From a virus (lineage: Duplodnaviria > Heunggongvirae > Uroviricota > Caudoviricetes): a stretch of DNA of 5,816 bases. Each line of letters begins with the position of its first letter. The first letter of the stretch is position 1. The position numbers and the translations under genes are program-made. Location of the stretch: IMG/VR virus record IMGVR_UViG_2671180695_000012; one strand, given 5' to 3'. Shown piece by piece: positions 3,821 to 4,131 of the stretch. Below the pieces are notes generated by a model that did no database searches, was not told where the DNA came from, and saw nothing but the letters and a program-made list of their open reading frames with translations.

Positions 3821-3896
3821 TGGAGCGGGCAGCGGGAATCGAACCCGCATCATCAGCTTGGAAGGCTGAGGTAATAGCCATTATGCGATGCCCGCA
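3821..3896 (-). tRNA. tRNA-Gly (anticodon UCC), with CCA encoded
   Basis: The reverse complement folds as a 76 nt cloverleaf: acceptor GCGGGCA/UGCCCGC, anticodon stem UCAGC/GCUGA, loop CUUCCAA, T-loop UUCGAUU. It is nearly identical to recalled E. coli glyT, with one difference (C11) that weakens a D-stem pair. Confidence 0.85.
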
Positions 3897-3899
3897 TAT

Positions 3900-3975
3900 G
3901 GTGCCGACTACCGGAATCGAACTGGTGACCTACTGATTACAAGTCAGTTGCTCTACCTACTGAGCTAAGTCGGCA
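3900..3975 (-). tRNA. tRNA-Thr (anticodon UGU), with CCA encoded
   Basis: 76 nt cloverleaf: acceptor GCCGACU/AGUCGGC, D-loop AGUAGGUA, anticodon stem ACUGA/UCAGU, loop CUUGUAA, T-loop UUCGAUU. One A52-C62 mismatch in the T-stem. Confidence 0.85.
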
Positions 3976-3977
3976 CT

Positions 3978-4054
3978 GGACCGCCACCGGGGACTCGAAC
4001 CTCGCACACTCAACTTAAAGGGTTGACGCTCTTTCCTGATGAACTGGTGACGGT
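3978..4054 (-). tRNA. atypical tRNA-like gene; anticodon loop CCUUUAA (formally UUU, Lys-type) with non-canonical C33 and C8; possibly a diverged tRNA-Lys or a pseudo-tRNA
   Basis: 77 nt with a full cloverleaf: acceptor CCGUCAC/GUGGCGG (C1-G72, one U-G pair), D-stem GUUC/GAGC with GG in the D-loop, perfect anticodon stem UCAAC/GUUGA, T-loop UUCGAGU, CCA encoded. Deviations are C8 instead of U8, C33 instead of U33, and an A51-C63 mismatch. Confidence 0.45.
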
Positions 4055-4055
4055 T

Positions 4056-4131
4056 GGTGGCCCTTGCTGGATTTGACCCAGCGACCTGTCGATTATGAGT
4101 CGCTCGCTCTCACCACTGAGCTAAAGGGCCG
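4056..4131 (-). tRNA. tRNA with anticodon CAU, Ile2 (ileX/ileZ)-like; may be scored as tRNA-Met by automated tools
   Basis: 76 nt: acceptor GGCCCUU/AAGGGCC, D-arm GCUC-AGUGGUGA-GAGC, anticodon loop CUCAUAA, T-stem GCUGG/CCAGC. Overall close to recalled E. coli ileX. The top two anticodon-stem pairs (27-43, 28-42) are mismatched and the T-loop begins with G. Confidence 0.65.

Follow-up and report, generated by a model that had tools for sequence, protein, structure and literature searches.

What is a tight cluster of four tRNA genes doing ahead of the lysis genes of a phage, and where were these genes obtained? The question is raised by the window analysed here, the whole of a 5,816-nucleotide (nt) stretch of viral DNA (IMG/VR record IMGVR_UViG_2671180695_000012, Caudoviricetes). 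The host of the array is a lambda-like prophage of Escherichia coli, and the array is placed between the gene of the antiterminator Q and the holin gene S. Transfer RNA genes located 3' of Q have been known since phage 21, and the cassette is common and already annotated. Tandem tRNA genes are found at this position in SfI, Sf6, ST64T, PS3 and P21, together with a bias toward the codon ACA (PMC3636060). A literature search on ileZ, argN and argO, the tRNA genes of Shiga toxin (Stx) phages, found no open-access paper, and a search on PhiR47 retrieved nothing on its tRNAs.

The array is probably one allele of a widespread mosaic cassette of the late operon, which would provide, in dependence on Q, minor tRNAs that decode codons ending in A (NNA). 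Its first two genes appear to belong to a phage lineage seen also in Stx phages, and the last two appear to be copies of enterobacterial host genes. The array is ordinary overall and illustrates how lambdoid phages build cassettes from phage-lineage and captured host genes. The gene calls and their order, the homologies, the population frequencies and the codon counts are direct observations.

The four genes and their origins

Four tRNA genes are called by ARAGORN in the window, all on the minus strand, and the order Ile, Lys, Thr, Gly is valid solely when this strand is read. The first is a tRNA-Ile2-type gene with the anticodon CAU (4130-4055; Met/Ile-type CAT in ARAGORN) and the second is Lys-like with the anticodon UUU (4053-3977; Lys TTT). 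They are followed by tRNA-Thr with UGU (3974-3899; TGT) and tRNA-Gly with UCC (3895-3821; TCC). The spacers read, on the minus strand, A (1 nt, 4054), GT (2 nt, 3976-3975) and TAT (3 nt, 3898-3896), and an encoded CCA end is read off the sequence in 4/4 genes. The array had been described in an earlier note, from the letters alone, with these four species, these CCA ends and spacers of 1-3 nt. This description is borne out, and the strand is now added.

Thr, Ile and Gly are retrieved by the Rfam tRNA model RF00005 (gathering threshold of 29 bits) in a scan of the whole window, with 73.8, 60.9 and 56.8 bits, respectively, and E-values of 1e-10 to 1e-15. The Lys-like gene is not listed in that scan and reaches 31.3 bits when its 101-nt stretch is scanned alone. 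It is a marginal member of the model, since the threshold is passed in the local scan only. The Prokaryotic Genome Annotation Pipeline (PGAP) labels tRNA-Ile, tRNA-Thr and tRNA-Gly at the locus in relatives. A tRNA-Lys label is added for the consensus allele and not for the window-type allele, and the Lys-like gene receives no PGAP annotation in prophages with the identical sequence. The cloverleaf is not returned for Ile or the Lys-like gene by minimum free energy (MFE) folding of the single tRNAs, a method that is uninformative for unmodified tRNA sequences. Weak Rfam matches to Plastid-ycf2 were rejected as antisense images of the tRNAs, and a Yar_3 match was rejected as below threshold. 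A promoter-like site within the Thr and Gly genes (3907-3880) is at chance level, with 1 found and 0.8 expected.

The first position is occupied by a homologue of ileZ, identical to that of Stx2a_WGPS8 at 74/76 positions and differing by C42A and T54G. The consensus ileZ allele is identical in Stx2a_WGPS8, PPompW and PhiR47_1 and scores 72.5 bits in Rfam, against 60.9 for the window gene. The host gene ileX, annotated as tRNA-Ile in 5,424 of 5,426 genomes, is matched by the Ile gene at 68/76 positions. Two stem pairs are changed on both sides between ileX and ileZ (C6-G67 to U6-A67, and G27.U43 to A27.C43). The CAU anticodon on an ileX-like body agrees with a tRNA-Ile2, as do the PGAP label tRNA-Ile and the acceptor stem GGCCCUU/AAGGGCC, which includes C4-G69 and C5-G68. 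These two pairs we take to be determinants of TilS. The A27.C43 and G28.A42 mismatches and G54 could affect the recognition for lysidine at position 34 or the charging with Ile.

The second position has a more complex history. The earlier note had stated that the array has no Arg tRNA. This holds for the anticodons, none of which is an Arg anticodon, and does not hold for the ancestry. The Lys-like gene is unrelated to host tRNA-Lys (about 60% identity) and, as judged from its sequence, derives from the argN (Arg, UCG) of Stx phages through an anticodon switch to UUU. It keeps the argN scaffold, and the anticodon loop has passed from CUUCGAA in argN to CCUUUAA. Among 28 distinct members of the family, the pairs 7-66, 27-43 and 30-40 switch on both sides exactly at the split between argN and the Lys-like genes. 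In the same alignment the cloverleaf pairing is kept in 96.6% of the cells, versus 29-54% with slid partner columns. Because the changes relative to argN are compensated, the structure of the Lys-like gene mattered earlier in its history. All Lys-like copies carry the A51.C63 mismatch and the discriminator U73. The C33 of the loop is fixed in the family (at least 120 IMG/VR loci), and a scan of IMG/VR for a U33 version of this anticodon arm found none. The window allele has the additional changes C4U, U8C and C11U, of which C4U and C11U retain wobble pairing.

Variants of the second gene occur elsewhere. In PPompW prophages of O157-type strains (L003, 1596-1671), which carry Ile-Lys-Arg(UCU), the Lys-like gene has lost 1 nt of its D-stem through a deletion, and it is followed by an argO-type gene without an encoded CCA and, just downstream, by ISEc20. 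In five other IMG/VR loci (L038, L056, L072 and two more) the third slot holds a thrU body with a UUU anticodon (G35T together with A26G). These five also have the most heavily mutated form of the Lys-like gene (C4T, T8C, C11T, C64T and a discriminator changed from U to G). This thrU variant may represent a second independent origin of a UUU tRNA in the cassette, or a single clonal event.

The third and fourth genes are of the thrU and glyT type, and the position that argO (Arg, UCU) occupies in the related Ile-Lys-Arg arrays of PPompW prophages is here taken by Thr. The window Thr is identical to host thrU at 76/76 positions, both in E. coli DH1 and in Salmonella. The Gly gene matches host glyT at 74/75 positions (the same in DH1 and Salmonella), and its one change, U11C, gives C11.A24. 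The Gly of PhiR47_1 is identical to host glyT and scores 64.9 bits, against 56.8 for the window gene. The similarity to the host operon ends at the mature 5' and 3' ends of thrU and glyT. The TAT spacer between the two genes can be assembled from host bases, as T directly follows thrU in the host operon and AT directly precedes glyT there. This junction would be explained by a captured thrU-tyrU-glyT fragment from which tyrU and its spacers were deleted, so that the loss of tyrU would have joined the two genes of the array.

Reverse transcription of mature, CCA-ended tRNAs and their joining head to tail would also leave homology that stops exactly at the mature ends and spacers of just 1-3 nt. 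Such a capture through RNA is barely credible and was rejected. If tyrU and its spacers were simply deleted from the DNA, the host flanking bases left behind would account for TAT, for which the chance probability is roughly 4/64. CCA is encoded by the tRNA genes of E. coli anyway and is hence not diagnostic, and no reverse transcriptase lies nearby.

The Thr-TAT-Gly module is also found behind other Q genes and other first tRNAs. In Escherichia phage JLK-2012 (L126, 1415-1648) the array between Q and S is Asn(GUU)-Thr-Gly, again with the TAT junction. The Thr of this phage has an effectively 3-bp anticodon stem (ACUGA/UCAUC), like the type resistant to the P2 Old protein, and receives no ARAGORN call. 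The D-arm of its Asn gene resembles that of glyT.

The stem mismatches listed in the earlier note (Ile 27-43 and 28-42, Thr 52-62, Gly 11-24) are all visible as 'v' marks in the Rfam model alignments. They are real, and the note had offered selection for altered recognition by nucleases or modification enzymes as one of their possible causes. One feature suits this proposal: C42A beside A27.C43 leaves a 3-bp anticodon stem in Ile, and shortened stems are one route of resistance to P2 Old (PMC12445682). On the other hand, the mismatches have separate histories. The A52.C62 of Thr is a native host feature, because the window Thr is identical to thrU, and it was rejected as a phage adaptation on this ground. 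The 27-43 mismatch is common to all ileZ copies. The Ile 28-42 and Gly 11-24 mismatches belong to a minority lineage (5/111 and 8/95 copies, respectively) that also has T54G and U8C, two changes that map to no known nuclease recognition site. Furthermore, tRNA-Ile2 and tRNA-Gly(UCC) are not named as primary nuclease targets in the cited papers. Selection on the mismatches is therefore very improbable, and they illustrate how a mismatch noticed in one sequence alone may be a feature inherited from the host or a product of drift.

Prevalence and the state of the window alleles

The ileZ-family gene is present in 3,037 of the 5,426 complete E. coli genomes, and at least 80% of the 311-nt array is covered in 600 of them. 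At least 80% of the whole 5.8-kb window is shared by 10 genomes only in this set. The array types seen in IMG/VR are Ile-Lys-Thr-Gly (92 loci), Ile-Lys-Arg(UCU) and Ile-Arg(UCG)-Arg(UCU). The four-gene array is also carried by the induced phages PhiR47_1, vB_EcoM-606R7 and vB_EcoS-689R5. A scan of genome contigs with a pattern of T-arm and acceptor found 6 loci only. Only E. coli and Shigella flexneri yielded the array, so that its taxonomic range is narrow as far as this exact pattern reaches.

The commonest haplotype is the all-consensus one (33/94). The exact haplotype of the window was seen once among the 94, in addition to four derivatives that are further mutated. The changes form a nested series, with three in the second slot, then U11C in Gly and then C42A and T54G in Ile. 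None of the three induced phages has the window-type changes: two are all-consensus, and PhiR47_1 is off consensus only at C2T and T46A of the second slot. The nesting indicates that the window haplotype is derived, and the window copy is a minority haplotype in which Thr is intact.

Nucleotide diversity (pi) was obtained from 58 loci with homologous flanks. It amounts to 0.0035 in Ile, 0.0061 in Thr and 0.0071 in Gly, versus 0.0178 in the 292-nt non-coding spacer that follows the array; in the holin gene of the same sample, 23/72 third codon positions vary. Ile, Thr and Gly thus look constrained by purifying selection. The Lys-like gene has a pi of 0.0195, a value that stands despite the fact that 17/77 of its positions were fixed by the search pattern.

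How should the changes of the window haplotype be read, then? The substitutions at conserved or paired positions in Ile, the Lys-like gene and Gly probably weaken these genes. Positions U8 and T54 take part in tertiary interactions and are near-universal in tRNA. Both are struck by the window changes, which also break the pairs 28-42 and 11-24. The covariance-model scores fall by 8-12 bits per gene, and the missing PGAP call for the Lys-like gene concerns precisely the window-type allele. All six tRNA differences arose on the window lineage and amount to 6/304 (2.0%), compared with 1.5-1.9% in the adjacent spacer. Throughout the sample, singleton changes at conserved positions are numerous and scattered. 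One identical copy of the array, in E. coli WS3294A (L005), sits in a prophage with two IS66-family insertions and an IS3 element, all three between holin S and ydfR.

These observations would agree with a relic: in the window lineage the cassette, or at least its Ile, Lys-like and Gly genes, would drift without selection, serve no use and persist only through its location in the late operon. This is possible, though it is doubtful for several reasons. Thr is untouched, C4U and C11U keep wobble pairing, and the family-wide diversity of Ile, Thr and Gly is 2.5-5 times below that of the flanking spacer. In addition, 122 genome records match the Ile and Lys-like pair of the window at 99% or more, and a prophage whose structural genes are all present has the haplotype as well. 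Weakening by drift is the economical, though unproven, reading of the window changes in themselves. For the cassette as a whole, the supply of minor tRNAs remains the preferred reading.

Codon supply and nuclease counter-defence

The earlier note had proposed that the array supplements rare codons of the late genes. Codon usage was compared between the late genes of the complete relative PhiR47_1 (7,554 codons) and 36 host genes (11,865 codons in a 50-kb host sample). The codons AUA, ACA and GGA are enriched 1.97-, 1.79- and 1.81-fold, respectively, in the late genes, with p values of 1e-3 to 1e-4. The host has one copy each of thrU and glyT in the DH1 operon, and ileX-type genes are found at a median of two places per genome. 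The codon bias fits a supplementation of three minor decoders of A-ending codons and leaves the Lys-like gene unexplained. The note had counted identity of the array to a captured fragment of a host tRNA operon, and likewise a lack of codon enrichment, against its own proposal. The first applies to half of the array, with Thr at 100% identity to thrU and Gly at 74/75 to glyT, whereas the enrichment is seen.

The proposed mechanism runs as follows. Since the genes lie just 3' of the terminator tR', transcription together with the lysis and morphogenesis genes is expected only when Q allows the terminator to be read through. The natural reading of the 1-3 nt spacers is that the four genes are co-transcribed and processed from one precursor. 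RNase P would cut each 5' end, and exonucleases would trim the trailers of 1-3 nt to the encoded CCA. The ileZ product, as a tRNA-Ile2, would read AUA after the conversion of C34 to lysidine, and the product of the second slot would combine the argN scaffold with the anticodon UUU in place of UCG. During the burst of late protein synthesis the cell would gain extra low-copy decoders of the A-ending codons AUA, ACA, GGA and possibly AAA. The dependence on Q, the route of processing, the aminoacylation and the functional effect of the substitutions are here predicted from sequence.

Several observations weigh against this interpretation. The early genes show an equal bias for AUA, ACA and GGA, so the enrichment is not specific to late genes. 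The bias is stronger for AGA (3.1-fold) and AGG (7.4-fold), for which the array has no tRNA, whereas AAA is not enriched (0.99-fold; AAG 1.39-fold). As a consequence, codon supply covers at most 3/4 of the genes, and the codon bias may merely mirror the composition of the phage DNA. Purifying selection is not apparent in the Lys-like gene, whose diversity is no lower than that of the non-coding spacer. Its alleles are often disrupted, with the 1-nt D-stem deletion in 13/119 copies and U8C in 22/119 of the IMG/VR sample. The state of the host prophage enters here as well. The prophage of WS3294A is found again in E. coli SW071618 (L212), where it is 99.8% identical over the window, is integrated in ascB and looks largely complete, so that decay within a dead prophage is not established as the source of the window changes. 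The proposal of the earlier note is thus kept for AUA, ACA and GGA, which are 1.8-2.0-fold up, and is weakened in its link to late expression and in its extension to AAA.

A different function is suggested by the defence systems of competing mobile elements. The main means by which P2 Old restricts lambda is cleavage of the anticodon stem of the host tRNA-ThrU(UGU), and cells hit by Old are rescued by phage Thr(UGU) tRNAs, including that of phage 21, in which the CNG motif is altered and the stem shortened (PMC12445682). The PARIS system, which also restricts lambda, cleaves the anticodon stem of tRNA-Lys and is neutralised by the tRNA-Lys of T5 (PMC11464382, PMC9122126). Both AriB of PARIS and PrrC cut tRNA-Lys(UUU). 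The cassette might then replace host tRNAs that are cut by such systems, with the Lys-like gene as a nuclease-resistant tRNA-Lys.

For the cassette as a whole this is unlikely. The Thr gene has the required UGU anticodon and lacks the altered CNG motif and the shortened stem of the resistant Thr6 and Thr21. Its anticodon arm, ACUGA-CUUGUAA-UCAGU, is identical to that of host ThrU and retains both the CNG motif and the 5-bp stem. The window Thr is not a resistant variant, because the host arm is fully susceptible. Host tRNA-ThrU gives little or no protection against P2 Old, and resistance needs both the motif changes and the shortened stem (PMC12445682). For Gly and Ile2, no targeting by these systems is reported.

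The Lys-like gene, on the other hand, deserves separate consideration, and an anti-nuclease role is plausible for it alone. It has the UUU anticodon and, as in a T5-type tRNA resistant to PARIS, a stem unlike that of the host around the AriB cut at 40/41. Its anticodon stem, UCAAC/GUUGA, shares no pair with the GUUGA/UCAAU of host tRNA-Lys (5/5 differ), which makes an escape from nucleases plausible on sequence. The differing pairs include 31-39, the sole A-U/U-A swap between the tRNA-Lys of T5 and that of the host. The fixation of C33 in the family and the UUU anticodon gained independently on the thrU body in five loci also point in this direction. The family would then be a phage-made tRNA-Lys, obtained from argN by the change from UCG to UUU and kept because its foreign stem and C33 evade AriB of PARIS, PrrC and secondary cuts by P2 Old. 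This is quite unlikely as a full account and suits the consensus allele better than the window allele. The gene diversifies as fast as the non-coding spacer, disrupted copies are frequent, and the U73 discriminator and the A51.C63 mismatch leave its charging by the lysyl-tRNA synthetase LysRS uncertain.

The argN-derived Lys-like tRNA with C33 is nevertheless the most interesting residue of the locus. If it were charged with Lys and resistant to PARIS and PrrC, counter-defence by tRNA, so far described for virulent T5-like phages and the tRNA-Thr of phage 21, would extend to very common E. coli prophages. The gene would also provide a clean natural case of an anticodon switch, and the independent change from UGU to UUU on the thrU body would be another answer to that pressure. 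On this view lambdoid phages would have, in the Q-to-S slot, a modular locus for spare tRNAs, shaped by conflicts with P2 and P4 elements.

The late operon and related systems

The earlier note had located the array between Q/tR' and the holin, in the slot where Stx phages carry ileZ-argN-argO. The annotation agrees: Q, tR', the array, a second terminator, S, R and Rz all lie on a single strand, the minus strand. The Q gene (4274-5095, 273 aa) matches the Pfam family PF03589 Antiterm (E=2.6e-55) and is called 'antitermination protein' by PGAP in near-identical prophages. A promoter-like sequence, TTGATT-16 nt-TAAATT (4241-4268), starts 6 nt past its stop codon. It was read off the sequence as a putative late promoter PR', with an AACGAT element behind it (4234-4229). 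The candidate agrees with the consensus at 8/12 positions and is absent from the promoter-scan list because the scanner requires 9 matches. We take the candidate and the AACGAT-GGG element (4229-4268) to resemble, in sequence and spacing, lambda pR' and its sigma-70-dependent pause site. A Trp_leader match over this region (4167-4273) was rejected, as it overlaps the PR'-tR' region and reaches 25.5 bits against a threshold of 41 bits.

The terminator scan places a tR'-like intrinsic terminator, graded strong, 5' of the tRNA genes at 4193-4174 (listed span 4166..4193), with the hairpin AACCCGCCGCCGAGCGGGTT followed by TTTTATT. A short transcript from PR' to tR' would presumably be the counterpart of lambda 6S RNA or StxS. 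The first lysis gene 3' of the array is a P21-type holin S (3313-3528; PF04971, E=1.4e-35). The array lies on the late-operon strand and holds the classic slot just 3' of tR' in a lambdoid late operon, since Q, the promoter-like site and the terminator precede it and S follows.

The 292-nt spacer between tRNA-Gly and S (3529-3820, minus strand) is highly structured, as seen from its inverted repeats, the terminator scan and its MFE. Three long hairpins, whose perfectly paired arms measure 11, 14 and 9 bp, succeed one another and are followed by a second terminator-like hairpin at 3613-3598; the MFE is -99.3 kcal/mol (z=-5.9 versus shuffles). Over half of the related loci conserve the spacer at about 98%, and the region 3529-3820 is without an Rfam match. 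Upstream of Q, the minus strand carries a RusA gene (5466-5092) and a DUF968 gene (5811-5479), both assigned by Pfam. Past the holin it carries, also by Pfam, YdfR/DUF1327, the lysozyme gene (2938-2405), Rz (1786-1235) and a terminase-associated DUF1441 gene. The gap between lysozyme and Rz (1787-2404, minus strand), of about 620 nt, is an unusual insertion within the lysis cassette. It holds several small open reading frames, one of which (2253-2101) has a hydrophobic, probably membrane-spanning product, and in near-identical prophages two tiny hypothetical genes are annotated there by PGAP.

Several known systems can be compared with the array. The closest is the ileZ-argN-argO cassette of 933W-type Stx phages, which shares with it the strand and the slot between Q/tR' and the late genes. 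The first genes agree at 74/76 positions (76/76 for the consensus), and the second is homologous to argN. The second gene differs here in its UUU anticodon in place of UCG, in C33 and in three compensated stem changes, and argO (UCU) is replaced by the host-derived Thr(UGU) and Gly(UCC). The spacers are of 1-3 nt here versus 7 and 13 nt in the Stx cassette, and no stx genes follow.

The arrays of phage 21, SfI, Sf6, ST64T and JLK-2012 share the genomic position and a Thr(UGU) tRNA, with the ACA bias described in SfI (PMC3636060), and JLK-2012 also has the Thr-TAT-Gly module. These arrays (Asn-Thr or Asn-Thr-Gly) start with Asn(GUU), whereas the present one starts with Ile2 and the Lys-like gene. 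In phage 21 and JLK-2012 the anticodon stem of Thr is mutated and shortened, whereas the window Thr is identical to the host gene. The host operon thrU-tyrU-glyT-thrT-tufB of E. coli and Salmonella is matched in thrU (76/76), in glyT (74/75, and 75/75 in the consensus array) and in the junction bases. The array lacks tyrU, the 116-nt spacer, thrT and tufB, and lies within the late operon of the prophage, not beside an attachment site. Finally, the tRNA-Lys of T5, acting against PARIS, and Thr6 and Thr21, acting against P2 Old, have the same UUU and UGU anticodons. The T5 tRNA keeps U33 and A73, whereas the Lys-like gene of the window has C33 and U73, together with the further changes of its allele.

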